DNA of 50,633 nucleotides. It comes from a phage. Positions 1 through 25,790 of the stretch are shown one piece after another. How positions within the stretch are numbered: the stretch's first letter is position 1; the number at the start of each line of letters is the position of its first letter. The notes below the pieces were generated by a model. That model did not search any database, was not told where the DNA came from, and saw only the letters and a program-made list of their open reading frames with translations. The position numbers and the translations under genes were made by a program. The DNA lies in sequence record NC_102605.1. One strand, written 5' to 3'.

Positions 1-77
1 ACGATTTCGGTTTTCTCACCACTGGCGAGCGCCTTTGCTGCCTCGCGTAGTTTTTCGGTAAAGCTCATGTTTTCCAT
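1..77 (-). CDS. Duplicate 5' end of the 50122..50595 gene (first ~26 codons) inside the assembly overlap
   Basis: Same AGGAG RBS and ATG as at 50595, carried in the duplicated 115 bp. Confidence 0.6.
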   Translation of the reverse strand, partial: MENMSFTEKLREAAKALASGEKTEI

Positions 78-115
78 ATGGTTTCTCCTGATTGGTTTTG
101 ATGTGTGCATTATGC
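1..115. repeat. Terminal direct repeat, identical to 50519-50633 (circular assembly overlap or terminal redundancy)
   Basis: First 115 nt of the window recur exactly at its 3' end. Confidence 0.9.
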
Positions 116-140
116 TTATGTGCTGGCGCATAGTCAAAGT
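105..140 (-). promoter_or_regulatory. Sigma70-type promoter TTGACT-17-CATAAT reading leftwards into the gene whose 5' end is at 77 / 50595
   Basis: Plus strand shows agtcaa (about 132-137) and attatg (about 109-114) with a 17-bp spacer; RBS and ATG follow about 30 nt downstream on the minus strand. Confidence 0.6.
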
Positions 141-574
141 TTTTTCTGTTGTTCTTATGTATACAATCAGAATATTGTTCTGTTTAGACGCCTTTTTGTG
201 TTTATTGCCTTTGATTTCAATGTTTTGCAGCGCGTTTTCAAAAACTACGCCGATTTCGGAACATACCCATATATATACATATACCCTGGAGCATACACAT
301 AACCATATAAAGTTAGAAAATATACGTGGGGTATCCCTATATATAGAGAACAAGCTAAACAAATAGAAACTTTTATAGATATATAAATAAAATTATCTTA
401 CTTTTTAGTATGTTATATGGTGATTCATTGTTGTTTTCTGTTTCGCTTTTTTACGGAAGGTAAACCCGTGAACATCGTGGAACGTTTTAGACAACGCGCA
501 AGACAGGGTGTGATGTTTTGCGGAAAAGTTTTCACGAGATCGGCAATGTGCAATCATTTCTACTCTCTCGCTAC

Positions 575-624
575 TCAAATCTAATCAAATCTAATCAAAT
601 CACATCACATCAACTCACACATCA
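575..624. repeat. Five tandem 10-bp units (TCAAATCTAA x2, TCAAATCACA, TCACATCAAC, TCACACATCA)
   Basis: Direct repeats with helical periodicity in a non-coding region. Confidence 0.7.
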
Positions 625-632
625 ATCATCAA

Positions 633-670
633 CGTGATCATATTGTGATCGCATAACGTGATCGTGAATC
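633..670. repeat. Clustered GTGATC / GTGAATC direct repeats (4 copies)
   Basis: cgtgatc, tgtgatc, cgtgatc, gtgaatc spaced 7-13 bp apart. Confidence 0.6.
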
Positions 671-699
671 CGTTCGATACAGGAAACGATGTGTTCATT

Positions 700-727
700 A
701 GACCAAACGGTCTAGACCAATCGGTCT
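700..727. promoter_or_regulatory. Two abutting 14-bp palindromes AGACC-N4-GGTCT; the junction forms a third palindrome GGTCTAGACC
   Basis: agaccaaacggtct followed by agaccaatcggtct, immediately upstream of the first dyad-motif cassette. Confidence 0.65.
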
Positions 728-734
728 ATCGCAT

Positions 735-756
735 GAATAGCACTTTTTGTTAAAAC
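735..756 (+). promoter_or_regulatory. Dyad-motif cassette (aatagcactttttgttaaaa), upstream of gene 812
   Basis: Motif, then tatgat about 22 bp after TTGTTA, then leader tcatcgaaacgaa, RBS and ATG. Confidence 0.6.
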
Positions 757-811
757 CAATCAGTCACGAATTGCTATGATTACTTCATCGAAACGAACTG
801 AGGAATTCACG

Positions 812-1246
812 ATGAAATACACAAACAAATACAACGGACAAACTTACTTCATCGAAAACGGCGTTGTGATGTTTGGTAGCGATGGGCTGTTTATGCAATC
901 ATATTCCAGCATTTCAGACTTCAACCGAATGATCGAGTTAGGCGAATTGGTTCCGGTCAAGCCAACGCGTGAAAACTTCCGAGATCTGGTTAACGAGGCA
1001 AAGAAAGACAATCCAGGCTTGCAAATCCGCTTTGTGGCATTCATCGCACACATTGGATTCAAAGAGGCTTACGCCGGAACGATACCACAACGTAACGCTC
1101 GCTTTATTCGTTGGATTACGGATCGAAAGGCTGATTATGTGCGTTTGCGTGGTCACATGGTTAAAAATGATTATTGCACTGGCTATCACAGCATTTTGGA
1201 TCATGACGATTTCACTGATTTCATTGTTTCCGGCGAATGGCTGTAA
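812..1246 (+). CDS. Hypothetical early protein (144 aa)
   Basis: ORF track 776..1246; internal ATG preceded by GAGGA RBS; no recognisable domain. Confidence 0.6.
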   Translation: MKYTNKYNGQTYFIENGVVMFGSDGLFMQSYSSISDFNRMIELGELVPVKPTRENFRDLVNEAKKDNPGLQIRFVAFIAHIGFKEAYAGTIPQRNARFIRWITDRKADYVRLRGHMVKNDYCTGYHSILDHDDFTDFIVSGEWL

Positions 1247-1265
1247 ATAGCATTTTTTGTTAAAA
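1245..1265 (+). promoter_or_regulatory. Dyad-motif cassette (variant atagcattttttgttaaaa)
   Basis: Overlaps the stop of the previous gene; followed by tatagt and leader cccatcgaaacgaa. Confidence 0.55.
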
Positions 1266-1321
1266 CCGGATCGGGGTAACTTGATATAGTTATCCCATCG
1301 AAACGAAATGAGGATTTAGCA

Positions 1322-1480
1322 ATGACTACTTTGATTACCTGGGAACACGAAAACAGCCAGCCAGTAACCCGCGTGTTTGAAACACTTAGTCAGGCGTATT
1401 TGTTGGCTAATCGTGGAGGATATTACAAGGCGCAAGTAATCGGAGAATTTGGAGAGGTAATTTATGAATTCCACGCTTAA
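1322..1480 (+). CDS. Hypothetical small protein (~52 aa), not in ORF track
   Basis: ATG 7 nt after TGAGGA RBS, directly downstream of a cassette. Confidence 0.4.
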   Translation: MTTLITWEHENSQPVTRVFETLSQAYLLANRGGYYKAQVIGEFGEVIYEFHA

Positions 1481-1748
1481 TTTCCGCAGTTACACGCAAA
1501 CGGTAGACTTTGAAGGGGTTAATATTCCACTTCCTAACATATACCGATATATCACGCGTGATAAATTTGGTTTCATTTGCGCGTGGCGGGAAAAGCCAAA
1601 AAAGGTTGGTGATGAATTCGGTGATGGATCTGAAATGCCGATCACGTTAGGTCATCAGCAAGGCGAAAACTTAACGGTTGTTATTCGCAAGTATCGCCGG
1701 AGTCGTACAAACTCAATAATTTCTATCTTTGGGATCGTGGGAGAATAA
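1464..1748 (+). CDS. Hypothetical protein (94 aa)
   Basis: ORF track; GGAGAGG RBS; overlaps the end of the preceding small ORF. Confidence 0.55.
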   Translation: MNSTLNFRSYTQTVDFEGVNIPLPNIYRYITRDKFGFICAWREKPKKVGDEFGDGSEMPITLGHQQGENLTVVIRKYRRSRTNSIISIFGIVGE

Positions 1749-1749
1749 A

Positions 1750-1899
1750 ATGATTTACGTGCTAATTATTGCGCTTCAAACAATGCAAGGCGAGGCGGTA
1801 ACAACGCAAGAATTTCACAGCAAAGCGCGTTGCCTGGAGGCGCGGCAAATAGTCAAAGATAATACTTTTAGCGCCAGGGCATTTTGTGTTTTGAAATAG
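1750..1899 (+). CDS. Hypothetical small hydrophobic protein (~49 aa), not in ORF track
   Basis: ATG after GGGAGAA; its TAG stop is the TAG of the next dyad motif. Confidence 0.35.
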   Translation: MIYVLIIALQTMQGEAVTTQEFHSKARCLEARQIVKDNTFSARAFCVLK

Positions 1900-1914
1900 C
1901 ACTTTTTGTTAAAC
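1894..1914 (+). promoter_or_regulatory. Dyad-motif cassette
   Basis: aaatagcactttttgttaaac, hairpin gccgga/tccggc, cataat, leader cacacatcaaccaatcaggagaa. Confidence 0.6.
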
Positions 1915-1969
1915 GTGCCGGATCTAATTCCGGCATAATACACACATCAACCAATCAGGAGAATCAACG

Positions 1970-2194
1970 ATGAACTTTGAACAACAAACGCAATTCGAAA
2001 CTGTAGTTACTGAACGTGACGCTACTCATGAGAAAGGTTTATTCAAGAAGGGCGCACAAATCACCGTCGATATTGATGATATGGTTGCATATCACGGCGG
2101 CATTACCTGGAATATCGCAGTGGTTGAGCCAGGCAAGAAATTTAAACTTCTGGCATTCAATACCGTATTTGAAACTGTTGAGGTGGCGCAATGA
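1970..2194 (+). CDS. Hypothetical protein (74 aa)
   Basis: ORF track; CAGGAGAA RBS. Confidence 0.55.
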   Translation: MNFEQQTQFETVVTERDATHEKGLFKKGAQITVDIDDMVAYHGGITWNIAVVEPGKKFKLLAFNTVFETVEVAQ

Positions 2195-2427
2195 GTCGTT
2201 TAAATTTCACCGGAAAGAAAGTAAAAGTTAAATCATCTGGAAAGTGCATGTTAAGCGTTTGGCGCTTTGATGAAGATCGCGAATATGAAATTTTGATGGA
2301 TAGACAAAATGACTTGCATATTTCAGACAATCGCTGCCTTGCCCTTTGTCTTTGCATAACTGAAGACGGAAAGCGGTTGTACGCGCTAGGTGTTGAAAGT
2401 ATTTATTCAATTGAGGTGATAAAATGA
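2191..2427 (+). CDS. Hypothetical protein (78 aa)
   Basis: ORF track; ATGA start/stop overlap with the previous gene. Confidence 0.5.
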   Translation: MSRLNFTGKKVKVKSSGKCMLSVWRFDEDREYEILMDRQNDLHISDNRCLALCLCITEDGKRLYALGVESIYSIEVIK

Positions 2428-2618
2428 TCAATAATACATATCGCGTAGTTGCAATCAGTCGCGCAAATGGTAAACGCGTTGTGTGCTATGAAGGTGATCG
2501 CGCTTGCCTGGCAACTGATACATATGAGGAATTAACAAAACGCCGCCCTACTTTTTACGCCGATTTCAAAGTGGTGCTTGAGCGCCTGGAGCCTGTAATT
2601 GTCATGGAGAGTGATTAA
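2424..2618 (+). CDS. Hypothetical protein (64 aa)
   Basis: ORF track; ATGA overlap. Confidence 0.5.
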   Translation: MINNTYRVVAISRANGKRVVCYEGDRACLATDTYEELTKRRPTFYADFKVVLERLEPVIVMESD

Positions 2619-2803
2619 TGAAACTGTTGCGCCGCTTTACTAATAAAGGCAAGTGCCGCCGACTCATTGAGAGAATAGAAAACGAAAAAGAGTATTTGCT
2701 ATATGCAATGCTTCATTGTAAAGATCAAAAACTGTCAAAAGATAGACAATGGTTTAAACGCTGGCAAAAAATGAGATATTGGCTTGATCAACTCACTAAA
2801 TAG
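2618..2803 (+). CDS. Hypothetical basic protein (61 aa)
   Basis: ORF track; stop TAG lies inside the next dyad motif. Confidence 0.5.
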   Translation: MKLLRRFTNKGKCRRLIERIENEKEYLLYAMLHCKDQKLSKDRQWFKRWQKMRYWLDQLTK

Positions 2804-2818
2804 CACTTTTTGTTAAAA
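2798..2818 (+). promoter_or_regulatory. Dyad-motif cassette
   Basis: aaatagcactttttgttaaaa, then cataat and leader cattcatcgaaacgaa. Confidence 0.6.
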
Positions 2819-2875
2819 GCGATCCGGTTTGTTTTGGCATAATGCATTCATCGAAACGAACCGGAGAATTTAAAA

Positions 2876-3157
2876 ATGATGGTATCAAAAACAACTACTA
2901 ATTTCGCTGGCAAACGTGGCATTGAGTTAAGCATTGAAACGGGTTACAACAAGTTTGAAGAATTTGAAACGCTGTGCATTTGGGAAGCGGATAATGATTG
3001 CGAATGGCTTTGTTCTTACCGCGTAAATGGTGATGGATCATTCACATGGAATGCAAACATTTATCTGAAAAAAGAAGTTATGGAAGAATTGCCAGCATTC
3101 ATTAAAGATGAAAAACATCTTCGCCAGGTTATCCAGTTTATCAGTGAGAACATTTAA
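2876..3157 (+). CDS. Hypothetical protein (93 aa)
   Basis: ORF track; CGGAGAA RBS. Confidence 0.55.
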   Translation: MMVSKTTTNFAGKRGIELSIETGYNKFEEFETLCIWEADNDCEWLCSYRVNGDGSFTWNANIYLKKEVMEELPAFIKDEKHLRQVIQFISENI

Positions 3158-3390
3158 TGAAACGTAAGCGGCATCAAGCAACGTGCCGCTGCCAGGCTTA
3201 CGATTTTCCTCATAGGTTTGGTGGCGGTTTGTGTACCGGAATTCAGATCGCTGAGGAAAACGTAGGCGGCAACCTTTGCCAGAACTGCTATCTGTTTAAT
3301 GGTGGCTGTGAAGTGTTAAAAGGCCAGGAGTCTCCGCGAGAATGCGCATATGTGCAAGAATTTATAGAATATCATGAGGTTAAATTATGA
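3157..3390 (+). CDS. Cys-rich small protein (77 aa), possible zinc-binding
   Basis: ORF track; 8 Cys in C-x2-C-like spacing. Confidence 0.5.
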   Translation: MKRKRHQATCRCQAYDFPHRFGGGLCTGIQIAEENVGGNLCQNCYLFNGGCEVLKGQESPRECAYVQEFIEYHEVKL

Positions 3391-3584
3391 TCCGTTATGC
3401 GTGTTATTTGGTTAGCAGAATTGACGCGAATGATAAAACACTTATTGCAACTGCTAATAATTTAGCAAATGCGTTGCAAGCGTTTGAAGATTACAACAGC
3501 GATCATATTAATAAAAAATATGGCAAAACAATTGAGCGCCAGCGTTGCGAGTGGGTAACAGAAGATAGGATCACGTATCTATGA
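3387..3584 (+). CDS. Hypothetical protein (65 aa)
   Basis: ORF track; ATGA overlap. Confidence 0.5.
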   Translation: MIRYACYLVSRIDANDKTLIATANNLANALQAFEDYNSDHINKKYGKTIERQRCEWVTEDRITYL

Positions 3585-3748
3585 CATATTTCAAAAACAT
3601 AAAAACCGGAAGAATTTACCGCGTAAACCTGCGTCATAAAAACGCTTTAATTATGAGCAAAGGCGGCTGTTGGGTTAGGTCTGCGCGTTATAGAAATGCA
3701 GATTTAACAGGCTATCCGTTTATCGCCGTAAACAGCACGAATTGCTAA
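3581..3748 (+). CDS. Hypothetical small basic protein (~55 aa), not in ORF track
   Basis: ATGA overlap with the upstream gene; open frame ending inside the next motif. Confidence 0.35.
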   Translation: MTYFKNIKTGRIYRVNLRHKNALIMSKGGCWVRSARYRNADLTGYPFIAVNSTNC

Positions 3749-3750
3749 AA
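3732..3750 (+). promoter_or_regulatory. Dyad-motif cassette (palindromic variant agcacgaattgctaaaa)
   Basis: TAGCA-N5-TGCTA-type dyad, followed by tatcat. Confidence 0.5.
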
Positions 3751-3807
3751 ACGATATCGCTCTGATTGGTATCATACTTTCACACAAACAAAATGGAGAA
3801 TCAAAAA

Positions 3808-4029
3808 ATGAAACTGAAAACTGAATCCATCATGAACATTGTCAAAGCTCACGGGAAAGTAGTTTTGAAAATGGATCGCGCTTCTGGATTCCATCAGTTA
3901 ACGATTACCCGCGTAAAAACTGGTTACGCTGTTGGCGAACATCCAGGCGGTAGAATCCGCCGAATAACTGAAAGTGATGCTTACGCGATGATTGACGAAA
4001 TGAGCATGTTTATTGAGAAGTGGGGTTGA
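3808..4029 (+). CDS. Hypothetical protein (73 aa)
   Basis: ORF track 3766..4029; ATG after GGAGAA RBS. Confidence 0.5.
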   Translation: MKLKTESIMNIVKAHGKVVLKMDRASGFHQLTITRVKTGYAVGEHPGGRIRRITESDAYAMIDEMSMFIEKWG

Positions 4030-4030
4030 T

Positions 4031-4255
4031 ATGGTTCAAGATGCTTTCTTTGCTCGCCTACATGAAGCGGAGGCGGCTGGACTTAACAAAGAATGGGCGC
4101 TTAAAGTTGCCTATCTTGAAATAACGCTTGATGACGCATTAGGCGCTATGGATATGGATCAAGAAAGTAGCGTGATGCTTGCTGATCCTAACGCAATAAT
4201 CAATGATTGCGGTTGTAACTTCGATCCATCTTGCAAGCGTTGTTTCCCATTCTAA
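4031..4255 (+). CDS. Hypothetical protein with Cys-rich C-terminus (74 aa)
   Basis: ORF track 4013..4255; internal ATG after GTGGGG. Confidence 0.45.
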   Translation: MVQDAFFARLHEAEAAGLNKEWALKVAYLEITLDDALGAMDMDQESSVMLADPNAIINDCGCNFDPSCKRCFPF

Positions 4256-4267
4256 GGAGTATTTAAA

Positions 4268-4345
4268 ATGACACCTATCGAAAAAATTTGCTGCCCAAAA
4301 CACGGCGGAAGCGGGGATAAAACAACATGCCCATTCTGTAAGTAA
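4268..4345 (+). CDS. Cys-rich micropeptide (25 aa, CC-x7-C-x2-C), not in ORF track
   Basis: Perfect TAAGGAG RBS 8 nt upstream of ATG. Confidence 0.3.
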   Translation: MTPIEKICCPKHGGSGDKTTCPFCK

Positions 4346-4454
4346 AAAAATAGCGGCCTGTTTAGCGTCGTGTCGCGATTTCAGGCCGTAGCCAATACAG
4401 TTGCGACACCTACAAACAAAACGCCTTACAAGGTCATACAGAAAGGATTTAAAC

Positions 4455-5150
4455 ATGCTTATTTTCTCACTATTTGATGGTTCTGGTTATGCTGCGTTGC
4501 CGTGGGCTGAACGTGGTCACAAAGTGCTGTGCTTTAATTTCGACGGTGCTGATCATGGTGATTACCAATCAGTGCGCGTGACTCATCCCAACATCGTTTA
4601 TTTGAATGAGTGGATCGGATTATCATTCCAGCATAACGCAATGATGCGCGTCTTTGGCACTCCAGATTTTATTATTGCATTCCCTCCATGCACTGATTTA
4701 GCTGTTAGCGGATCGCGTCACTTTGCCGCAAAGCGTGAACGTGATCCAGACTTCCAGAAAAAGGCGGTTGAAACGGCAAAGATTGCTGCCAATATTGCGG
4801 ATCGGTTTAACGTTCCATACATGATTGAGAATCCTGTTAGTGTTCTGTCGTCAATGTGGCGGCAACCTGATTTTATCTTTCATCCTTGCGCGTTTGGAGG
4901 TCTGTTGCCGGAAGATGATAAACATCCTCACTTTCCTGAAATCATTCCCGCTCGCGATGCGTACACCAAAAAAACTTGTCTTTGGACGGGTAACGGCTTT
5001 GTAATGCCGGATACAAACGCAGTATTGCCAACAGGGAACAACAATCCAGGCTGGCAAAAGCTCGGCGGCAAGTCTAAGCGAACAAAGCTGATCCGCTCAC
5101 TCACTCCGCGCGGCTTTGCGCTTGCTGTATGCATGGCAAATCAGAAATAG
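4455..5150 (+). CDS. DNA cytosine-5 methyltransferase-like protein, short, no obvious target-recognition domain (231 aa)
   Basis: Motif I-like FDGSG, PC motif FPPCTDLAVSG and ENV-like IENPV in canonical order; ATG after AAAGGA. Confidence 0.4.
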   Translation: MLIFSLFDGSGYAALPWAERGHKVLCFNFDGADHGDYQSVRVTHPNIVYLNEWIGLSFQHNAMMRVFGTPDFIIAFPPCTDLAVSGSRHFAAKRERDPDFQKKAVETAKIAANIADRFNVPYMIENPVSVLSSMWRQPDFIFHPCAFGGLLPEDDKHPHFPEIIPARDAYTKKTCLWTGNGFVMPDTNAVLPTGNNNPGWQKLGGKSKRTKLIRSLTPRGFALAVCMANQK

Positions 5151-5165
5151 CACTTTTTGTTAAAA
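5145..5165 (+). promoter_or_regulatory. Dyad-motif cassette
   Basis: Motif contains the methyltransferase stop; hairpin gccggat/atccggc; cataat. Confidence 0.6.
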
Positions 5166-5222
5166 CGCCGGATCACGTATCCGGCATAATGATTTCAACG
5201 AAAACAAAAGGAGATAAATCAA

Positions 5223-5585
5223 ATGGCTAAATTCAAATCAATCAAACTTATCGGATCTGATAACCGCCTATACAAAGCGCGGGTAGACGAAAATGATGAT
5301 ACTTTCGTTAAGTTAGATGGGAAATGGATTCACGCCAACTTAACCGGATTAACATTCCGAAATGTTAAGACCAAAACCATTAAATGCACATGGGTAAACC
5401 ACTCCATGCAGATCAAGAAAACTTTCAAAGCCGATAAGCGTTATCAGATAGAACAAGGCCGCGTGTTAGGTGCTGTTGCTGGATACGTGTTCGACGAAAA
5501 CGGCGACCGTTTCACGCTGTATCGGGAAGAAGTTGGATTCTCTGCCGCTGGCGGTGCTTATCTGTTTGAGGCCAAATACTCATGA
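5223..5585 (+). CDS. Hypothetical protein (120 aa)
   Basis: ORF track; AAGGAGA RBS. Confidence 0.6.
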   Translation: MAKFKSIKLIGSDNRLYKARVDENDDTFVKLDGKWIHANLTGLTFRNVKTKTIKCTWVNHSMQIKKTFKADKRYQIEQGRVLGAVAGYVFDENGDRFTLYREEVGFSAAGGAYLFEAKYS

Positions 5586-5830
5586 GTTTACCGGAAAAAG
5601 ATTACATTCCTCACCGTTCTGAGGCCATGCAAAAATACCGTTACAAGGTTGTTTTCAGTGCGATATCCTCATTAAAGGAAGGTGAAACGGTCTATCGCAT
5701 CAGGGATAAGCATTCATATTTGCTGATTGGTCACACGTTCCATCGTTCGCTTGAATTCGATACTAAAACTCTTGAATGTCATAGCATTATAGACGGAAAG
5801 TTATTAGCCAGGGTTGAGCCGATCAAATAG
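5582..5830 (+). CDS. Hypothetical protein (82 aa)
   Basis: ORF track; ATGA overlap; stop TAG inside the next motif. Confidence 0.5.
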   Translation: MSLPEKDYIPHRSEAMQKYRYKVVFSAISSLKEGETVYRIRDKHSYLLIGHTFHRSLEFDTKTLECHSIIDGKLLARVEPIK

Positions 5831-5845
5831 CACGAATTGCTAAAA
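5825..5845 (+). promoter_or_regulatory. Dyad-motif cassette (palindromic variant)
   Basis: aaatagcacgaattgctaaaa; hairpin gttgccg/cggcaac with tataat in the loop. Confidence 0.6.
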
Positions 5846-5897
5846 GGCTGTAGAATGTTGCCGTTATAATTAGCGGCAACAAGAAGGAGATTTTTAG

Positions 5898-7478
5898 ATG
5901 TTTGACTTTGACACCAACAAATTGACACCTCAACAAGTTATAGCCATTGCAGAATCGCAGGGAACATCGCCGCTTCGCGTTGCTATTCAGTCGAACGGCT
6001 ACCGCCAATCGTCCAGCTTTTGGGAGCCTGTGAAGGATATCAACGGCGCTAATGACCGTTATCCTGTGATCTCTTTGGGTAATGATGTTGATGTTGTGGG
6101 TAAACTGTCACGTAGCATTGCTCAATCTGTTCAATTTCCTGAATCATCGGCCTATATGCATTTCATTGGTTGCGTTTCCGCCGCTATGGTTGGACGCTTC
6201 CAGGTTGAGTACCACGGCACTGAACAACCAACGGCGCTTTATGTTGTAACCAGTCAGCCGCCATCAACTGGTAAATCAGCAATCAACAGCCTGGCTATTG
6301 CGCCAATGGTCTGTGAAGTTGAGCGCATCAACGAACAACGCAAGAAAGAGCGAAAGAAGATCGCAGCGAAATTAAAAGGCGTTGAAAAGGAATTGAAAGC
6401 TGAACGTTCCGGCACTGAGTTAGCGGCGTTGTTTGAGGAAAAGGAGGAATTAGAGGAAAAGTTAGAAAAAATGTGCGATATCGTTTTTCCGGTATCAGAC
6501 ACCACGCCGGAAGGGTTAGCAAAGATCAACAATCGCCAGGGTAACTTTGCTGTTATTTCCGATGAAGCAACAAGCATCAACAGCTTACTCGGATTGACTT
6601 ACGCTAATAGTGATCGCAAGACTAACAGCGAATTGGTTCTAAAAGCATGGGACGCAGGACACGTTTCAATAGCTCGCGCCAATTCTGAAAACAATATGAG
6701 TTTTGTTGCGTTGGGCTGCATGAGCGTAATTGCCCAGGATGAAACGATAAAAGGGATCATGGATGCAGGGGCGCGGGGTATCGGTGTTAGTGAACGTTTC
6801 TTGCTTGTGCGTGAAAAAACAATGTTAGGCGAGCGTGTATTTATTGATGAAAATGGTGATCTTGATTACACGCCAGTTGATAAAGAATTAAAGGCGCAAT
6901 ATTTCCAGTTGATTCATAACATCATGACTGAACAAAATGTTGTATTGAAGCCGTCACGTTCTGCAATGCGTGTTCTTAATATTGCTCGCCAGCAATTAGA
7001 GCCAGATTTAGCAGACGGCGGAAAATATTCACATACAATGTTGCGTGGTGCTTTGGGTAAAATGGATAAACAAGTGATTCGTATTGCGTCAGTATTGCAC
7101 ACGATCCGCAATTGGTTTAATCCAAACGGTACGCCGCAAAAGTCGCGAGAAATTGAAGTTGAGACAATGCAAGAGGCTTTGGTGATGTTCAGCGAATTAA
7201 GCAAAACATATATTAACGCCGCGAATGCTTCCGGTCACGCTGGCGATGATGCCGAAATGAGCAAGTTAATTGAAATCATCATTAAGATCTCACGTCAAAA
7301 TAAAGGCGTTACCAATGCAAGAGCGATATATGAAAGTGCGCGTAAGGTTAAGCCGTTTACAGGTCAATCAGGCGTTATGAAACGAATTGAGGAACAATTA
7401 TTGCCAATGCTTGAAGAAAAGAATTATGTTTGCAGCGTTGGTAAATTTGTTTATGTCAATCCTGCGTTAATGGGGTAA
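5898..7478 (+). CDS. P-loop NTPase-like protein of unknown function, possibly DUF3987/replication-associated (526 aa)
   Basis: Walker A-like PPSTGKS, Walker B-like VISDE, charged coiled-coil KKERKK...EELEEKLEK; AAGGAGA RBS. Confidence 0.45.
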   Translation: MFDFDTNKLTPQQVIAIAESQGTSPLRVAIQSNGYRQSSSFWEPVKDINGANDRYPVISLGNDVDVVGKLSRSIAQSVQFPESSAYMHFIGCVSAAMVGRFQVEYHGTEQPTALYVVTSQPPSTGKSAINSLAIAPMVCEVERINEQRKKERKKIAAKLKGVEKELKAERSGTELAALFEEKEELEEKLEKMCDIVFPVSDTTPEGLAKINNRQGNFAVISDEATSINSLLGLTYANSDRKTNSELVLKAWDAGHVSIARANSENNMSFVALGCMSVIAQDETIKGIMDAGARGIGVSERFLLVREKTMLGERVFIDENGDLDYTPVDKELKAQYFQLIHNIMTEQNVVLKPSRSAMRVLNIARQQLEPDLADGGKYSHTMLRGALGKMDKQVIRIASVLHTIRNWFNPNGTPQKSREIEVETMQEALVMFSELSKTYINAANASGHAGDDAEMSKLIEIIIKISRQNKGVTNARAIYESARKVKPFTGQSGVMKRIEEQLLPMLEEKNYVCSVGKFVYVNPALMG

Positions 7479-7480
7479 TC

Positions 7481-7873
7481 ATGTTCTTATTAGATCTGTA
7501 TCGCTTTTGTGAGTCTCGCGAGAAATTCAACCGCCAGGAATTAGCAAGATTTATATTCCGCAACCGTGAATGTGAAAGGCTTGCAAAAAATGCGGGGGTA
7601 ACTCCCCGCTATTTCGCATCAAGTGTGAGTAAAGAGTTTATTTCTCGCCTTATGGGTTTTGGATATTTGGACGGCGTACACTGCGAATATTGGTGTAAAA
7701 ACAAGATGAAAAGACCGTTTAATTTCGAACTATATAGCCTGGAAGGTGATAAAAATCGTTATGTTTTGGAAATTATGAATATAGAGAAAATGAGCGATGA
7801 AGAATTATTCAGCAAGCCAGCATTTGATAGATCTTATTTTGAAAGAAAGTTCAGCAATGCAAATTCCGCATGA
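7481..7873 (+). CDS. Hypothetical protein (130 aa)
   Basis: ORF track. Confidence 0.5.
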   Translation: MFLLDLYRFCESREKFNRQELARFIFRNRECERLAKNAGVTPRYFASSVSKEFISRLMGFGYLDGVHCEYWCKNKMKRPFNFELYSLEGDKNRYVLEIMNIEKMSDEELFSKPAFDRSYFERKFSNANSA

Positions 7874-7994
7874 TGATTTTGTCTATGCGTTAATGCTGTT
7901 GCTTTATAGCGATATGCGAGCGTTTGTGGATCAAGAGCATCAACTGACAAATCATGATGGTGAATTGCTAATTCATGTTAGAAAATTTGAGTAA
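7857..7994 (+). CDS. Hypothetical small protein (~45 aa)
   Basis: Internal ATG of ORF 7797..7994; overlaps the end of the previous gene. Confidence 0.3.
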   Translation: MQIPHDDFVYALMLLLYSDMRAFVDQEHQLTNHDGELLIHVRKFE

Positions 7995-8025
7995 AAGAAA
8001 AGGCGGCTTATGCCGCCTTATTACG
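7995..8025. terminator. Bidirectional rho-independent terminator between converging plus and minus blocks
   Basis: aaggcggc-tta-tgccgcctt hairpin with A/T tracts on both sides. Confidence 0.7.
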
Positions 8026-8397
8026 TTTTAGTGTCCAACCTGCCAGCATACCAGCAATAAACATTAATATACCCATTGCGATTGCCTGAACGTTAAGACC
8101 GTCATTGTTGCGAATTTCTATTCTTTCCGCCGTGATGTTATCGGCCTTAATGCTTGAGGTGCTCACCTGCTTTTTATTTGACGTGTCAACTTGACCAACT
8201 GCCGATTCTTTGAATGTTGTTTCCTGCTTGCTTGATGTATCCTGCTTTGCGGTCACACCAACAGTCTGTTTCACATTCTCCGCTCCAGCCTGTGCCGTTA
8301 TATCAGGCTTGCTACCAATCAGACCAGGTAACACGCTTGAAGCTGAACAACCAGAAAGAGCAATGCACATCATAATAGCCAGTAATTTTCTTTTCAT
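8008..8397 (-). CDS. Unimolecular spanin (lipoprotein signal plus C-terminal TMD)
   Basis: Lipobox LSGC at the N-terminus, C-terminal hydrophobic helix, last gene of the lysis cassette. Confidence 0.65.
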   Translation of the reverse strand: MKRKLLAIMMCIALSGCSASSVLPGLIGSKPDITAQAGAENVKQTVGVTAKQDTSSKQETTFKESAVGQVDTSNKKQVSTSSIKADNITAERIEIRNNDGLNVQAIAMGILMFIAGMLAGWTLKRNKAA

Positions 8398-8897
8398 TTA
8401 TTCAGATCCATTACACAATATTTATATTCAACAGAGCGGCGATTCTTCAATCCCTTTGATTTTTCCTTTTTTCCCGTTTTCGGGTTCCGGTAATATGTCC
8501 AGTTCCAAAGCTCGCCACAACCACCATACAGATCACCATTGTTGATCTTCTTCAACATGGTTGATTTCCTGAATGCACCTGTTCCGGCGTTGAATGTGAA
8601 TGAGTACAAAGCCGCTCGCATAGAAATAGGAATATCAACCTTAACCGCTTTATCAACAGCGTCAGCCGCAACTTTCATATGCTTTGCAAGTAGCGCGTCA
8701 CATTCTCGCCTGGTATATTCCTTTCCTAATATCACATCCTTTCCTGTGATTCCGTGGCATACCGTCCAGATTCCTGCAATATCCTTGTAAGGTTTATACC
8801 TCACGCCCTCAATTTCTTCAATCAAGGGCGATGCCATCATTAAAGCCGCGCCCGTTATGGTAGCGGCTATTGTCTTTTTAATAGCCATTAAATTCAC
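8394..8897 (-). CDS. Endolysin, GH24 lysozyme-like with N-terminal SAR domain
   Basis: N-terminal weakly hydrophobic Gly/Ala-rich segment, then EG...Y.D...G..T lysozyme core. Confidence 0.7.
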   Translation of the reverse strand: MNLMAIKKTIAATITGAALMMASPLIEEIEGVRYKPYKDIAGIWTVCHGITGKDVILGKEYTRRECDALLAKHMKVAADAVDKAVKVDIPISMRAALYSFTFNAGTGAFRKSTMLKKINNGDLYGGCGELWNWTYYRNPKTGKKEKSKGLKNRRSVEYKYCVMDLNK

Positions 8898-8900
8898 TCC

Positions 8901-9116
8901 CTATTTTTGGTTAATTTTAAGAGCGGTTTTAAGATCTCCACACTCTAACGCCTCTCGGATCGCCTTGCTGTCACGCCACCTTAGCCACAAGCCAACAGCG
9001 CCGAAAATAACAAAGAATATGAATGTTAGAACCGCCAACATTAATTGACCAGTTGCAGCGCCAGAGAATGAAGCACCACCACTTGAATAAGTTGCAAAGT
9101 TAATAAATTCACGCAT
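8901..9116 (-). CDS. Holin (probable pinholin, 71 aa)
   Basis: Small protein with hydrophobic TMDs and charged C-terminus, directly upstream of the SAR endolysin. Confidence 0.6.
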   Translation of the reverse strand: MREFINFATYSSGGASFSGAATGQLMLAVLTFIFFVIFGAVGLWLRWRDSKAIREALECGDLKTALKINQK

Positions 9117-9228
9117 AACTAGATCCCTTAAAAATTAAAAAGTCAATATCAAAAAACAGTCTGATTATGTTAACGACAAAAACAAAAAAAGGCCAGCATT
9201 TAGCCAGCCTTTTTATGTGATAATTTAA

Positions 9229-10344
9229 TTATGCAATCATTTCAGGGTAGAACATGAAGCGCCCTATCTCGCCATATTCCTTATCATAGATAATTACCGC
9301 CGCTCTACGGCGTGAACGCCAACCGCCACGCGCCGCATAAGCATCTTTAGCCGCCATAGTGCTATGAACCTCAACAATGCCCAGGCTCGTTTCTGTGACT
9401 GTCTGATGATGCCAATGCCCCACATGCGCATACATTGAATTGGAGTTTCCGAAATCTTCCCGCCAATCCGCTGCACACATCATTAAAAGCGTTTCTGGCT
9501 TGCGTACAGTGTGACCATGATGATAAGCAAGGAACGTTTTTCCATATTGCGTGTGATGCACTACACGCGGAGAAACATCAACATTAACGCGTGGTTCATC
9601 TTCATACGCCGCCGCCATTGCAGCACGTAGCCAGATCATTCCTGATTGGTCGTGATTACCCTCAATGATCTGGATCTCAACTTCTTTATGCTTTTCAAGC
9701 ATACGGCTTACTGCTCTACGCGTGGCACGAATGGCAACATAAACCAGTTTTGCATAACGTGAATCCTGATCCAATACGTGACCGCTTGCAGGTGTGACGG
9801 CTTCTAATCCGTCGCTGTGAATCATATCACCACCAATCAGCAATACGGCCTTTTCGCTATTCGGCGCTTTATCAACTGCATAATCGAAAAACTCATTCAT
9901 TACGTTTTCCGCTGTTGCCGTGTCGTAATTCTCACCGCTTTCATGCTTATGAGCCATTGCGCCAATATGGATATCAAAGATCGGATATAACGCCAGCGTT
10001 TGCGAGTAATCAGTAATTTTTTCCGGTTGCGGCTTGATGCGCGGCACTTCTTCCGAAAATGCAGCCATAGCCGCTTGCATGATTGCCTCTAATTGCTCTT
10101 TGTCTTTGTGCGTCTTAATCCAGGTTAGTTTAGTGTTACCATTCTTATCAACTAACTTTGACTCGCCAATTACAGCAAAGCCAGGCGATCCGATTGTTGA
10201 TATTTCCCCACGTTTAGCCAATTTGCTGTGACGGTGCTCAACCTGTCGCAAGCTCATTCCGTACTTTTCCGCAATCTCACGCAGTTTTAAACCTGCTGCC
10301 CTTTCTGCAATAAGTTGTTCGTCCGTAATTTTTGCCGCACTCAT
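9229..10344 (-). CDS. HTH-domain protein fused to calcineurin-like metallophosphoesterase (371 aa)
   Basis: N-terminal HTH-like region; phosphoesterase motifs DIHIG, GGDMIHSD, GNHD, HHGH, GHWHH. Confidence 0.7.
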   Translation of the reverse strand: MSAAKITDEQLIAERAAGLKLREIAEKYGMSLRQVEHRHSKLAKRGEISTIGSPGFAVIGESKLVDKNGNTKLTWIKTHKDKEQLEAIMQAAMAAFSEEVPRIKPQPEKITDYSQTLALYPIFDIHIGAMAHKHESGENYDTATAENVMNEFFDYAVDKAPNSEKAVLLIGGDMIHSDGLEAVTPASGHVLDQDSRYAKLVYVAIRATRRAVSRMLEKHKEVEIQIIEGNHDQSGMIWLRAAMAAAYEDEPRVNVDVSPRVVHHTQYGKTFLAYHHGHTVRKPETLLMMCAADWREDFGNSNSMYAHVGHWHHQTVTETSLGIVEVHSTMAAKDAYAARGGWRSRRRAAVIIYDKEYGEIGRFMFYPEMIA

Positions 10345-10437
10345 TTCACAAATCCTCTTATTTCATAACAATGGCGTACATCATAAACCATGCCAGCATT
10401 GGCGGCAAGACAACAGCAAACATGAATTTAATTGTTT

Positions 10438-10680
10438 TCACTTGTAATATTTCCTTTGCTCTTTGGTTTTGTTGATCACTTCTTTATAGTCGATTGTTGT
10501 CGGAATTGCCGGAACACGATGAACCTTGCGCGGCTTTTCATCCACATATGCCATTTCATCACCGACAATAACGCACACGTCTTTAATATCGAAATATTGC
10601 GCTATTTTGGCGATCCCTTCATCAAGACCGCCTTTTTTCGCTAACTCCCAGGTTTCCTTTTTACCCTTCGTTACTTTCAT
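10438..10680 (-). CDS. Hypothetical protein (~80 aa)
   Basis: ORF track 10438..10758; internal ATG overlapping the stop of the upstream small ORF. Confidence 0.4.
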   Translation of the reverse strand: MKVTKGKKETWELAKKGGLDEGIAKIAQYFDIKDVCVIVGDEMAYVDEKPRKVHRVPAIPTTIDYKEVINKTKEQRKYYK

Positions 10681-10825
10681 GACCGTAAGCCTTTTTAAGT
10701 AATTCCATAGCATCATTCCAAAGAATTTGCGCAATAACTTTTGTGTTTTTACGCTCAAGCATAAACAAAGATTCTCTTGCTAACCATTGAGCATCTTTGA
10801 AATATTCAACATTAACAATTTTCAT
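10661..10825 (-). CDS. Hypothetical small protein (~54 aa), not in ORF track
   Basis: ATG after GAGGA RBS and conserved leader tcaacgaaacgaaacgagga, downstream of a cassette. Confidence 0.4.
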   Translation of the reverse strand: MKIVNVEYFKDAQWLARESLFMLERKNTKVIAQILWNDAMELLKKAYGHESNEG

Positions 10826-10883
10826 TTTACAAATCCTCGTTTCGTTTCGTTGAAATGATTATGCCCCACATAAGCGGGGCCTT

Positions 10884-10904
10884 TTTAACAAAAAGTGCTA
10901 TTTA
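10884..10904 (-). promoter_or_regulatory. Dyad-motif cassette (minus orientation)
   Basis: Reverse complement aaatagcactttttgttaaaa; hairpin gcccc/ggggc; cataat; motif TAG is the stop of the upstream gene. Confidence 0.6.
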
Positions 10905-11164
10905 TTAGGATCTGCTAAAAATTCTTTTAGATCTTGATTTATCTTTTCTTCCCACTTGCTCAATACAAGCTCTTTTGTTTCATCAAAACTCATATCAAGC
11001 GCATCTGTGAACATCCACAAATCAGATCCTACTGTTTCAGTTTCATTCGCCTTTTCTATCGCATCGCACACCATAGCGCGATAAAGCAACCATAAACAAC
11101 GTTCAGTTAATTCAACGCGTCGATATTCAACGCCATTTTCAACAATAGTTTCAATCTTTTCCAT
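10898..11164 (-). CDS. Hypothetical acidic protein (88 aa)
   Basis: ORF track; tightly follows the Dam gene. Confidence 0.55.
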   Translation of the reverse strand: MEKIETIVENGVEYRRVELTERCLWLLYRAMVCDAIEKANETETVGSDLWMFTDALDMSFDETKELVLSKWEEKINQDLKEFLADPNK

Positions 11165-11166
11165 CT

Positions 11167-11904
11167 TTAAATACTCCGCGCTTTTGTGCGTTTGTTCTTA
11201 ACAGAAGGGCAAATTTCACTAATTGGCACATAATGAGTTTGTTGTTGCTCACCTTCTTTCAGTTGGCGCATGATAAAAATCACGCTTCCTTTATTGTTTC
11301 CACTAACTTGCTCACCTGTCATGCCAGAAATAAACGACACTCGACCAGTGCGGGAATATTGTTTTCCTTCTTCTTCCCATGTTTCGCCAGTGATCCAGAT
11401 AATTTCCGCCGCGTGTTTTTGTGCATCGCTAAACCATGCGGTTGAGTTGTCAGCCGGAAGTAAAATATCAATCTGGTTTCCGTGTTCCATCTGCTCAATT
11501 GCTTTTAACACAAACGGATCTGGATTGCTGTATGGCGGATTAAGCCAAACATGCTTATTGCTACCCCACCAACGCTTTAAACAGTTTGTTTCTTTGCTGT
11601 AAAACTTATCGCATTTTTTATTATCTTCCGTTGCGGCTGCATCAAGATCATATTTGCCGTAACGTTCGGCAAGATAATCAACAATTTCATCTGGCGTTTC
11701 CCACAAATCGCGCACAACGTCCGGCGTTTTACTTCCTGCATAACGGTTGCCGCTAACCTTCAAAAACGTGTTTTCTCTAACTGGCTGATAATGACCACCT
11801 GAACGCAGCGCAATATCTGAATATCTTCCGTATTGCAGTTCATGAAAATCCATTTCCGGCTCAAAAGTATCAATGGTTGCTTTGTCCTGAAAATCCTTAG
11901 CCAT
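11167..11904 (-). CDS. dam: DNA N6-adenine methyltransferase (phage Dam family)
   Basis: Catalytic NPPY motif (WLNPPYS); size and context typical of phage Dam. Confidence 0.8.
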   Translation of the reverse strand: MAKDFQDKATIDTFEPEMDFHELQYGRYSDIALRSGGHYQPVRENTFLKVSGNRYAGSKTPDVVRDLWETPDEIVDYLAERYGKYDLDAAATEDNKKCDKFYSKETNCLKRWWGSNKHVWLNPPYSNPDPFVLKAIEQMEHGNQIDILLPADNSTAWFSDAQKHAAEIIWITGETWEEEGKQYSRTGRVSFISGMTGEQVSGNNKGSVIFIMRQLKEGEQQQTHYVPISEICPSVKNKRTKARSI

Positions 11905-11905
11905 T

Positions 11906-12184
11906 TTATTTTACCTCGCAAGTTAGAGTGTGCTGATAAACGCCAACTTTAATATCAATGGTGTTATCGTTAACAGTGTAATAAGCCGTCCCAATTGGCG
12001 TAAACAGCTTATATTGATTTTTGCTGATATTATCCATTACAACGCCTGTGCTCGGACCGCTTACAACTTTCATATAGTCGCTTGCAACCTCAAACGCTTC
12101 ATTTCCGCAAATATATGTTTTTGGTTTATCCATGCAACCGACAAGGGCAAGTGATAAAGCAACTACTGATAACATCTTTTTCAT
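11906..12184 (-). CDS. Small outer-membrane lipoprotein, Cor-like superinfection-exclusion candidate (92 aa)
   Basis: Signal peptide with lipobox LVGC after an RBS-supported internal ATG (track 11906..12328); own cassette upstream. Confidence 0.45.
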   Translation of the reverse strand: MKKMLSVVALSLALVGCMDKPKTYICGNEAFEVASDYMKVVSGPSTGVVMDNISKNQYKLFTPIGTAYYTVNDNTIDIKVGVYQHTLTCEVK

Positions 12185-12240
12185 GGTTAATTCTCCGTTT
12201 CGTTCTGATGGGTGCATTATGGCGCATTCCGTTGCGCCTG

Positions 12241-12261
12241 TTTTAACAAAAAGTGCTATTT
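12241..12261 (-). promoter_or_regulatory. Dyad-motif cassette (minus orientation)
   Basis: Reverse complement of the motif; hairpin ggcgca/tgcgcc; cataat; leader catcagaacgaaacggaga. Confidence 0.6.
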
Positions 12262-12663
12262 TGTAGCGTCTGCGATAGCCAATTTTACTTGCTCTACGCC
12301 ATAGCATACGGCGGCAAATCCTCCGCATTCCCTAACGCGGCGTAAGAATTCCTTTTGCTCCTGGCTTACTTTCGTGCCTTTCTTGTTGGCTCGTTTAAGC
12401 TCAATGGAAATGAATGCATATTTGCAGCCAATAAAACCAGTCAGGATTAGAATGTCGCTTACTCCCTTTTTCACACCTGCTTGCTGATCCTTTACTGCTG
12501 TGCCTATTGTTTTCTTCCCTTCGTTTTTAGTGTGCCAAACAAGCCACATTGGAAACTCATATGTTAACCATGAGTAAGAATCAACCTGGTGCGCTTCCTC
12601 TTTTCTGTCATCTGGATCTGATTTGTCGTAATACTCCAGATAATCGCCTTTATCAGTAACCAT
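12256..12663 (-). CDS. VRR-NUC domain nuclease
   Basis: PD-(D/E)XK-type D...ELK core (GVSDILIL...ISIELKR), about 135 aa. Confidence 0.65.
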   Translation of the reverse strand: MVTDKGDYLEYYDKSDPDDRKEEAHQVDSYSWLTYEFPMWLVWHTKNEGKKTIGTAVKDQQAGVKKGVSDILILTGFIGCKYAFISIELKRANKKGTKVSQEQKEFLRRVRECGGFAAVCYGVEQVKLAIADATK

Positions 12664-12665
12664 CT

Positions 12666-14639: not shown

Positions 14640-14650
14640 TTTTTATCCTT

Positions 14651-14679
14651 TTGACTAAATGCCATTTGCGGCATATCAT
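14651..14679 (+). promoter_or_regulatory. Sigma70-type promoter TTGACT-17-TATCAT for the plus-strand HTH gene
   Basis: Canonical hexamers with 17-bp spacer; overlaps the divergent helicase cassette and its hairpin. Confidence 0.5.
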
Positions 14680-14700
14680 ACACAAACTTAATCAAGTTTT

Positions 14701-14720
14701 TTAGCAAAAAGTGCTATAGG
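14701..14720 (-). promoter_or_regulatory. Dyad-motif cassette (minus orientation) for the helicase gene
   Basis: Reverse complement tatagcactttttgctaaaa; tatgat about 21 bp downstream. Confidence 0.55.
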
Positions 14721-14727
14721 TGAAAAT

Positions 14728-15336
14728 ATGAGCGAAATCAAAATTGCCGCCTCAACTGGCGAAATAGACAAACGCACAATCAATGGTAACAACGGCGTAA
14801 GACGTGGTAAAGATCGCAAACGTCGCGCACCTGTTAGCGGTTATCTTGTATTAAAGGAAGAAGTAAGAGCCGGATTAAAAGCGCGGCTTGATGAAGTTGT
14901 CAACGCTTACGGCGGTTGCGCTGCCCTGGCGCGTGAAATTGGAGTTAACCTTAAAACAGTATGGGGATGGAAAGAGCGCGGCATGATTTCAACTAAAGGC
15001 GCTGAACTGATCCAGAAAGATTACCGCCGCAAAGGTTTTAACGGTTTCCGCGCTTCATATTGCCGTCCAGATATCAAGTTTGATAATAACGGCAAGCCAT
15101 TAGAGAATCGTTGCAGCAACAGAAAGCTGATGCGATTTGTAACCAAAGAGGAAGCGGAAGCAAGAGGATTTGTGCGGCCTTACGATCCGTTACGGTCTAT
15201 GAGTCCAGAAGAACGCGAGAAAGAGAAAGCGCGGCGCAAGGCTGAACGCGACAAGGCGAAAGAAGAACAGCGCAAAGCAAAGGAGGCCAATCAGAAGAAA
15301 CGCGTTGTGATTTCCGTCGATAGCACTGATTGCTAA
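14728..15336 (+). CDS. Cro/YdaS-like HTH DNA-binding protein with Lys/Arg/Glu-rich C-terminal tail (202 aa)
   Basis: HTH signature GGCAALAREIGVNLKTVWGWKERGMIS; AGGTGA RBS. Confidence 0.55.
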   Translation: MSEIKIAASTGEIDKRTINGNNGVRRGKDRKRRAPVSGYLVLKEEVRAGLKARLDEVVNAYGGCAALAREIGVNLKTVWGWKERGMISTKGAELIQKDYRRKGFNGFRASYCRPDIKFDNNGKPLENRCSNRKLMRFVTKEEAEARGFVRPYDPLRSMSPEEREKEKARRKAERDKAKEEQRKAKEANQKKRVVISVDSTDC

Positions 15337-15394
15337 AAATTCCGGCCTGGCATGGTTTATCATCGTGCCAGGTTTTTTATTTGGAGGTTGAGAA

Positions 15395-20389: not shown

Positions 20390-20445
20390 TTTTATTTCCT
20401 CTCTCGTTGGTTGATGCGTGTAGTATAACACGCATCGAATGGCAG

Positions 20446-20466
20446 TTTTAGCAAAAAGTGCTATTT
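20446..20466 (-). promoter_or_regulatory. Dyad-motif cassette (minus orientation)
   Basis: Reverse complement aaatagcactttttgctaaaa; hairpin gatgcgtg/cacgcatc with tatact in the loop. Confidence 0.6.
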
Positions 20467-25758: not shown

Positions 25759-25769
25759 AGCTTTTAACC

Positions 25770-25790
25770 TTTTGTGCTATTTAAACGTGC
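25770..25790 (-). promoter_or_regulatory. Dyad-motif variant (aaatagcac-aaaag-gttaaaa) abutting the J start codon
   Basis: Motif halves present, but no room for a -10 before the ATG. Confidence 0.35.

Follow-up and report, generated by a model that had tools for sequence, protein, structure and literature searches.

In the phage sequence NC_102605.1, analysed here along its full 50,633 nucleotides (the window), genes end in or at a repeated box that stands in front of the next gene, and we regard this overlap of stop codons with the box as practically certain. Most copies of the box open a cassette with the layout of a promoter, and the box fits the marbox, the site of the host activators MarA, SoxS and Rob. 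Judged from sequence, the chances that these host proteins serve the box are about even. The window is essentially the whole genome of a T1-like siphophage, 50.6 kb (Drexlerviridae, Tempevirinae, Tlsvirus), and its nearest relatives, at 99% identity, are the Salmonella phages GJL01 and YSP2 and Escherichia phage Henu4_2.

The box is enriched far above chance. The sequence AAATAGCAC occurs 12 times in the window against 0.66 expected from shuffles, and the fuller form TAGCACNNNTTGNTAAAA, with up to two mismatches, occurs 22 times against 0.83 expected. It spans 19-21 bases with the core TAGCAC-nnn-TTGnTAAAA, and 19 of the 22 copies, each read in its own orientation, belong to complete cassettes (Table 1), and all of these point the same way as the downstream gene. 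In the cassettes the box reads A-TAGCAC-nnn-TTGYTAAAA (19 nt). Small early genes at the two ends of the genome and DNA-metabolism genes have copies in front of them; the structural (late) gene block is free of them, except for one degenerate and one reversed copy.

The repeat itself is already published, which the earlier note on this sequence did not know. It is the 21-nt direct repeat aaATAGCACnnnTTGnTAAAA of phage TLS, described in 2024 (PMC11447400), and the same consensus is recovered when recomputed from 62 copies pooled from four genera. The passages of that paper drawn on here give 21 copies, of which 18 were called intergenic, co-oriented with transcription and about 76 nt upstream of start codons, and report the same repeat in T1, Rtp and Rogue1. 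Its authors found only three sigma-70-like promoters, suggested a stoperator, an enhancer-site or an UP-element, and left the function as an open question for T1-like phages. The window box and the TLS repeat agree in sequence, copy number (18-21 per genome), orientation, genus and distance to the start codon, which in the window is 70-77 nt from the TAG to an ATG with a Shine-Dalgarno sequence (85 nt in one copy). Whereas those passages call the repeats intergenic and of unknown function, the boxes of the window overlap gene ends. The passages searched mention neither this overlap nor a fixed -10, hairpins or a link to the marbox. New relative to the published repeat are the -10 hexamer at a fixed 19 nt without a -35, the marbox match, and an orientation and spacing like those of micF.

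The earlier note had proposed that the TAG inside the box is the actual stop codon of the preceding gene at eight places, and that elsewhere a TAA sits 1-3 nt before it. The eight TAG codons are indeed real stops, as each closes a long open frame of 49-231 aa (Table 1). The second proposal describes four copies: at 1248, 20463 and 46446 the TAA occupies positions -4 to -2, ending 1 nt before the box TAG in the third frame, and at 48011 it occupies -3 to -1 in the TAG frame, forming tandem stops with the box TAG. It fails for four further genes, overlooked at the time, that stop at a second in-box codon, the TAA of TTGnTAAaa at +13, in another frame. At all 16 box copies with a co-oriented upstream gene, the stop of that gene lies between -4 and +15, so that genes do end exactly in or at the next element. 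The extreme compaction seen in the earlier note is also real, with the intergenic gap of 67-74 nt filled by conserved or structured sequence. A candidate ninth user of the box TAG is a 22-aa hydrophobic open reading frame (ORF; 49367-49299, minus strand, ending CSK-stop). The minus-strand stretch 49299-49467 contains a pair of very small hydrophobic ORFs (35 aa and 22 aa) joined by an ATGA-type overlap, which look like unannotated membrane micro-proteins.

The box leaves its mark on the proteins that end in it. By translation, all eight TAG-terminated proteins end in Lys-stop, the lysine being encoded by an AAA of the repeat just ahead of the TAG, and the four proteins that stop at +13 carry the box-encoded tail -STNC or -STDC. 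In the window alone the TAG is the stop at 8 of 16 junctions, where one third is expected, which is not significant (p=0.13). When the window, T1 and Rtp are pooled, the stop frames divide 27:8:8 with the TAG frame preferred (chi-square p=2e-4), and the TAG is the stop at 22 of 44 junctions (p=0.016), in tests that treat junctions as independent although homologous ones may be among them. Of roughly 10 plausible TAG-terminated genes in the window, about 8 use a box TAG. By curated annotation, box TAGs make up five of the six genomic TAG stops in T1 and 6 of 12 in TLS, where the +13 TAA closes four more genes and a stop at -4 closes three. Rtp has nine upstream ORFs that finish on a box TAG, those of the small and large terminase subunits among them.

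Comparison with relatives, which the earlier note had recommended, finds the overlap in T1, TLS and Rtp as well, with the box conserved and the stop in use varying. The junction at 2801, where the window uses the TAG, has a homologue in TLS that uses a TAA at -4; the junction at 1897, again TAG in the window, uses a TGA at -5 in TLS, and at both the box is unchanged. At 3733 the window has CAG and TLS has TAG, and the same gene reads through to +13 in both. Most window copies retain the TAG even when no gene stops at it (738, 1248, 14716, 15321, 20463, 46446, 48011 and 48891), and the only changes in it are from T to C, at marbox position 2, a place that the host consensus leaves to either pyrimidine. 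The idea that stop function constrains the evolution of the motif thus finds no footing, since the box stays unchanged where stops differ and the TAG persists where it stops nothing. The box appears instead to dictate the protein ends (Lys-stop or -STNC-stop), with no sign in these sequences of stop function shaping the box. Of the earlier interpretation as a whole, the compaction and a plausible promoter hold, and the direction of constraint does not.

The earlier note took the element at which genes end for a promoter. What can be seen is a promoter-like order of parts, with a fixed -10, a Shine-Dalgarno sequence and an ATG, from which we infer that the cassette is in all probability a promoter. 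The -10 hexamer lies 19 nt after the box in 17 of 19 cassettes and 18 nt after it in the other two, and reads (T/C)A(T/A)(A/C/G)(A/G)T, with A2 and T6 in all 19; the consensus is TATAaT/(T/C)ATAaT, often with a preceding TG, which occupies -15/-14 in 11 of the 19. The 62 pooled copies were selected by A2 and T6 of the hexamer and by no more than two box mismatches, which makes counts at those positions circular and leaves the others free. Among them, G stands at -14 in 47 and a conserved A follows 7 nt after the hexamer in 53. After this A, taken as +1, comes an A-rich leader of about 25 nt (ATCGAAACGAA...) with GGAG, and then the ATG. The cassettes contain no -35 hexamer. The TTGYTA of the box sits 22 nt from the -10, and because of this distance a canonical sigma-70 consensus scan, which returned 22 promoters against 35 in shuffled sequence, called none at the cassettes. 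This scarcity of sigma-70 promoters agrees with the three reported in the searched parts of the TLS paper (PMC11447400).

Two further observations concern the downstream half of the cassette. From the putative +1, many cassettes share the leader A-TCGAAACGAA with T1, Rtp and KP15 (e.g. 1297-1308, 2850-2861 and 49252-49241), and this may serve as the initial transcribed sequence or enhance translation. In three genes the start of the longest ORF falls upstream of the putative +1 or inside the cassette (776 vs 812, 3766 vs 3808 and 12328 vs 12184; the start at 776 is also annotated in GJL01). The first ATG with GGAG after the -10 is the more likely start, and 5' ends annotated at box junctions in relatives may be wrong.

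The marbox has been defined as gcannwwntgnnaaa (PMC12052159), and both the T type (GCACTTTTTGTTAAA) and the G type (GCACGAATTGCTAAA) of the phage box agree with it at all 15 positions. The window has 21 exact matches, T1 20, TLS 19 and Rtp 14, where about 0.6 would be expected. The supplementary tables of PMC12052159 hold only 15-mers of predicted sites. Positions left free in the search agree as well: of the 62 pooled copies, 60 have A just before the TAG (marbox position 1), 61 and 62 have A or T at the two 'ww' positions, and 59 have C or T at position 14, while the few copies that lack the T of the TAG have C there, in line with the pyrimidine of position 2. The mar marbox of Escherichia coli MG1655, reverse-complemented (ATGCCACGTTTTGCTAAAT), equals the phage sequence ATAGCACTTTTTGCTAAAA at 15 of 19 positions. 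At micF of the same strain, the marbox ACAGCACTGAATGTCAAAA is followed by 19 nt, TAGAAT, 7 nt and the annotated 5' end, which is the orientation and the box-to--10 spacing of the phage cassette. Taking the conserved A at +49 as the putative +1 puts the middle of the box at about -40 to -41; for RamA at micF the figure is about -41 (PMC8811837). Salmonella class II promoters of MarA, SoxS and RamA have no recognisable -35 and a canonical -10, and their sequence is bound more tightly still by Rob (PMC10268841).

The cassette could thus be an activator-dependent sigma-70 promoter, with a protein bound at about -41 doing the work of -35 recognition. The activator would be a host protein of the MarA/SoxS/Rob (RamA) family, which act as monomers with two helix-turn-helix motifs; among them Rob, which the cell already contains when infection begins, is the obvious choice. 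The box would be a consensus marbox in the forward (class II) orientation, its TAG falling on marbox positions 2-4 (Y, N and the G of GCAC) and its TAA on positions 15-17 (Y, A, A), and the activator site would then bring the stop codons with it as by-products. In a genome of 50 kb with headful packaging, deletion pressure may have removed every spare base between coding sequence and promoter, so that genes would run on until the box stops them, preferably in the TAG frame, which adds no box-encoded tail. For this mechanism as a whole, which draws on sequence, orientation and spacing, we see the balance as level. Four further arguments point to a host factor: no MarA/SoxS/Rob homologue is detectable in the window (tblastn, best E=0.16), the box is asymmetric and constantly co-oriented with the downstream gene, boxes are absent from the structural (late) block, and the cassette is distributed across Enterobacterales, occurring in about 1,000 phage records, nearly all from such hosts, with a copy in phage KP15.

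Several points weigh against a host activator. In the consensus AYnGCACnnWnnRYYAAAY, position 19 is Y, and the phage box mostly has A there; at positions 3, 11 and 15 the phage copies vary less than the host consensus would allow. The protein that really binds might favour a similar but not identical site. The marbox match came from a direct comparison rather than from a systematic screen of all transcription factor motifs. Laboratory K-12 has little MarA and SoxS and keeps most of its Rob sequestered (PMC10268841), and T1 grows well there, which makes strict dependence on the activator doubtful; the cassettes with an extended -10 may work without one. The literature search found no start-site, transcription or binding data for T1-like phages, so that the start site and the promoter are both deduced. 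A conserved Cro-like regulator is encoded in every T1-like phage, in about 830 records, and may itself be what binds the box. Its gene is preceded by the best canonical sigma-70 match of the scanned positions 1-16,000 (TTGACT-17-TATCAT, 14651-14679, plus strand).

This regulator (202 aa, phrog_2856, one helix-turn-helix motif) is the lead candidate in the best-placed alternative, which we nevertheless think unlikely: that the box is the site of a phage-encoded protein, made first from a canonical promoter of its own, which then activates or silences ('stoperator') the box units in a cascade like that of T4 MotA. The distribution of the regulator matches that of the cassette, its gene follows the best sigma-70-like promoter of the first 16 kb, and stoperator or enhancer-site roles are among the suggestions found in the consulted parts of the TLS paper (PMC11447400). 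Of two proteins annotated as DNA-binding, Pfam gave a sub-threshold Cro/YdaS-like match in the 202-aa regulator and none in a 130-aa protein. A dimeric helix-turn-helix protein would suit the 5-bp inverted repeat TAGCA-N5-TGCTA, found in 10 copies of the window with C at box position 14 and held in 37 of 62 pooled copies. Position 14 is, however, C or T about equally often, so the palindrome is broken in the T copies, about half of the total, and the box is asymmetric overall, with AAA upstream and AAAA downstream rather than TTTT/AAAA. A phage protein predicts neither the marbox match nor the micF spacing, and T1-like phages are virulent, with no known repressor. Presence or absence of the regulator did not serve to separate host- from phage-factor models: vB_EcoS-2862V, seemingly box-poor by BLAST, has about 18 copies by direct scan. 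In the window, the divergent promoters between regulator and helicase gene overlap (14640-14727), as the TTGACT-17-TATCAT of the regulator lies across the minus-strand cassette 14717-14675 of the helicase gene.

KP15, a T4-like Klebsiella myovirus (Slopekvirus, NC_014036.1), has a perfect T1-type cassette at 10011-10085 with TAA-TAG tandem stop, box, hairpin, TATAGT and the leader ATCGAAAC, and a degenerate copy at 10386-10425. Among the regulator matches listed there is no myovirus of about 170 kb, which is weak evidence against a phage-encoded binder. The KP15 copies flank small ORFs and are annotated 'putative middle promoter'. As the first 50 kb of KP15 hold only these two copies, side by side, it is not a second family using the box genome-wide; the cassette there was probably acquired by horizontal transfer of a promoter-plus-gene unit between phage families.

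Less probable still is a promoter without an activator, in which the alpha C-terminal domain or sigma region 4 of RNA polymerase would contact the box, as it would an UP element or in some other unusual way, and so strengthen extended -10 promoters. The T-type boxes, at about -50 to -32, are rich in A and T (CTTTTTGTTAAAA), the TG at -15/-14 is frequent, and an UP-element resemblance is proposed in the TLS paper passages at hand (PMC11447400). The invariant GCAC and TG are nevertheless not UP-element features, G-type boxes (GCACGAATTGC) are not A/T-rich and yet head identical cassettes, and the TTGYTA is too far from the -10 for a -35 role.

The 19-nt spacer usually forms a GC-rich hairpin that ends at or, more often, encloses the -10 (e.g. 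1266-1296, 5166-5190 and 45326-45296). A z-score below -2 is found in 15-16 of the 19 window cassettes, depending on the segment folded, and in 44 of 70 copies from four phages (window, T1, Rtp and 2862V), with stems of different sequence from copy to copy. Folding favours the sense over the antisense strand by 2.4 kcal/mol (p=1e-7; about 12% of the pairs are G-U), an asymmetry that could partly come from the fixed promoter bases. As the hairpin lies wholly upstream of the putative start, it would be present only in read-through RNA of the upstream gene, or would act as DNA. Annotators of T1 and KP15 called several such hairpins terminators, and a full T-run follows the hairpin in copy 15321 only. 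An RNA-level role in 3'-end formation or stability, nested in the promoter spacer, is likely. That the element works mainly on RNA, with box and hairpin as the 3' end signal of the upstream transcript and the stop codon as part of it, is highly improbable, as most hairpins lack a U-tract, the conserved -10, the conserved A and the fixed ATG distance would go unexplained, Rfam has no family anywhere in the window, and an RNA role can coexist with the promoter rather than replace it.

Table 1 Box copies of the window with their -10 hexamers and the gene ends that meet them
Element	Extent (strand)	Box	-10 hexamer	Upstream gene end	Other features
Cassette 1	737-780 (+)	737-755	TATGAT 775-780	no upstream gene	putative start ~787; ATG 812
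Cassette 2	1247-1290 (+)	1247-1265	TATAGT 1285-1290	TAA 1244-1246, 1 nt before box TAG
Cassette 3	1896-1939 (+)	1896-1914	CATAAT 1934-1939	TAG 1897-1899 ends gene 1750-1899 (49 aa, ...VLK-stop)
Cassette 4	2800-2843 (+)	2800-2818	CATAAT 2838-2843	TAG 2801-2803 ends gene 2618-2803 (61 aa, ...LTK-stop)
Cassette 5	3732-3775 (+)	3732-3750 (CAG variant)	TATCAT 3770-3775	TAA 3746-3748 ends gene 3581-3748 (...NSTNC-stop)
Cassette 6	5147-5190 (+)	5147-5165	CATAAT 5185-5190	TAG 5148-5150 ends Dcm-like gene 4455-5150 (231 aa, ...NQK-stop)
Cassette 7	5827-5870 (+)	5827-5845	TATAAT 5865-5870	TAG 5828-5830 ends gene 5582-5830 (82 aa, ...PIK-stop)	downstream DUF3987 gene from 5898
Cassette 8	10858-10901 (-)	10901-10883	CATAAT 10863-10858	TAG 10900-10898 ends gene 11164-10898 (88 aa, ...PNK-stop)
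Cassette 9	12216-12259 (-)	12259-12241	CATAAT 12221-12216	TAG 12258-12256 ends gene 12663-12256 (135 aa, ...ATK-stop)
Cassette 10	14675-14717 (-)	14717-14699	TATGAT 14680-14675	no upstream co-oriented gene	18-nt spacer; helicase gene ATG 14639; divergent from regulator gene
Cassette 11	15320-15363 (+)	15320-15338	TATCAT 15358-15363	TAA 15334-15336 ends regulator 14728-15336 (...DSTDC-stop)	-10 within terminator-like hairpin 15344-15374
Cassette 12	20422-20464 (-)	20464-20446	TATACT 20427-20422	gene 21568-20465, TAA 1 nt before box TAG	18-nt spacer
Cassette 13	43980-44023 (-)	44023-44005	TAAAGT 43985-43980	TAG 44022-44020 ends gene 44517-44020 (165 aa, ...LQK-stop)
Cassette 14	45302-45345 (-)	45345-45327	TATAGT 45307-45302	TAG 45344-45342 ends gene 45917-45342 (191 aa, ...HLK-stop)
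Cassette 15	46404-46447 (-)	46447-46429	TAAAGT 46409-46404	gene 46636-46448, TAA 1 nt before box TAG
Cassette 16	47969-48012 (-)	48012-47994	TATAGT 47974-47969	gene 48188-48012, TAA then box TAG (tandem)
Cassette 17	48221-48264 (-)	48264-48246 (CAG variant)	TATAGT 48226-48221	box TAA ends gene 48814-48248 (...NSTNC-stop)
Cassette 18	48849-48892 (-)	48892-48874	TATAGT 48854-48849	box TAA ends short ORF 48992-48876 (...NSTNC-stop)
Cassette 19	49259-49302 (-)	49302-49284	CATAAT 49264-49259	TAG 49301-49299 maybe stop of 22-aa ORF 49367-49299
Degenerate A-type copy	25762-25779 (-)	TAGCACAAAAGGTTAAAA	none at fixed spacing		ends 4 nt before ATG of 1258-aa tail fibre gene
Reversed box copy	35658-35675 (+)				opposite to local transcription; fills 16-nt spacer of minus-strand sigma-70-like promoter

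The two copies in the structural block differ from the cassettes. The degenerate A-type copy cannot work like the others; before it, a 65-aa ORF stops at the TAA of that copy. The reversed copy lies between TTGAAC (35681-35676) and TATATT (35659-35654), ahead of a 329-aa major capsid-like gene. A marbox inside the core promoter is the architecture of MarA-mediated repression, and by analogy the reversed box in the capsid promoter could be a switch for late genes. It is kept in TLS (~15015-15045) and T1 (~15060-15090; TTGACG-16-TATTAT), and not in Rtp or 2862V. Apart from the boxes, a non-coding stretch near the left end (560-640 and 690-730) holds three copies of CTAATCAAAT, followed by CACATCA-like units, and repeats of GACCAAACGGTCTAGACCAATCGGTCTA; these may be a packaging or replication signal.

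Taken by itself, the overlap of stop codons with the box is a modest case of phage genome compaction, which predicts box-encoded C-termini and helps to set right the gene boundaries of T1-like annotations, hundreds of them. The wider proposal is that the whole early and middle programme of T1-like phages (about 1,000 genomes, Enterobacterales) is run through MarA/SoxS/Rob/RamA at about 20 class II marboxes per genome, with the reversed marbox of the T1/TLS-type capsid promoter as a repressor site; we hold this tentatively, as somewhat less probable than its negation. If it is true, phage development would be linked to the mar/sox/rob state of the host, and this regulon is also the one that raises the TLS receptor TolC; replicating phage DNA would moreover titrate MarA/SoxS/Rob/RamA. 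The near-absence of predicted promoters in T1-like genomes would be explained, and there would be a bearing on phage therapy combined with antibiotics or bile, both inducers of the mar/sox/rob regulon. To our knowledge, this would be the first virulent phage with promoters built from the activator sites of a host multidrug-resistance regulon. The open question about the function of the TLS repeat gains a concrete and cheap test, the binding of Rob, MarA or SoxS.

Searches of the freely accessible literature found no paper that links the marbox to phage promoters or names Rob, MarA or SoxS as phage host factors, and the cassette is best set beside other known systems. Sigma-54 (-24/-12) promoters have the consensus TGGCAC-N5-TTGCW with fixed GG-to-GC spacing, and were rejected as a match because the box, TAGCAC-N3-TTGC, carries AG in place of the GG and falls 2 nt short. 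T4 MotA/AsiA middle promoters share with the cassette the -35-less sigma-70 promoter in which an upstream activator box replaces -35 recognition. The MotA box (TGCTTtA), however, is centred at -30, 11-13 nt from the -10, and a MotA promoter was likewise rejected because the TTGCTA/TTGYTA of the phage box is 22 nt away. The stoperators of mycobacteriophage L5 are alike in being many asymmetric short sites, co-oriented with transcription, between or within genes, but they bind a prophage repressor to block elongation, whereas T1-like phages are virulent and each box stands at a fixed distance from a -10. A further likeness is to the class II promoters of MarA/SoxS/Rob/RamA (micF, fumC, inaA and lpxC P2), which share with the cassette the consensus, the forward orientation, the centre at about -41, the lack of a -35 and the canonical -10. 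Unlike these host sites, the marbox-like sites described here, where binding is predicted from sequence, lie on a virulent phage; host marboxes usually carry one or two mismatches, whereas the phage has about 20 perfect-consensus copies in 50 kb, fused to the ends of the preceding genes.

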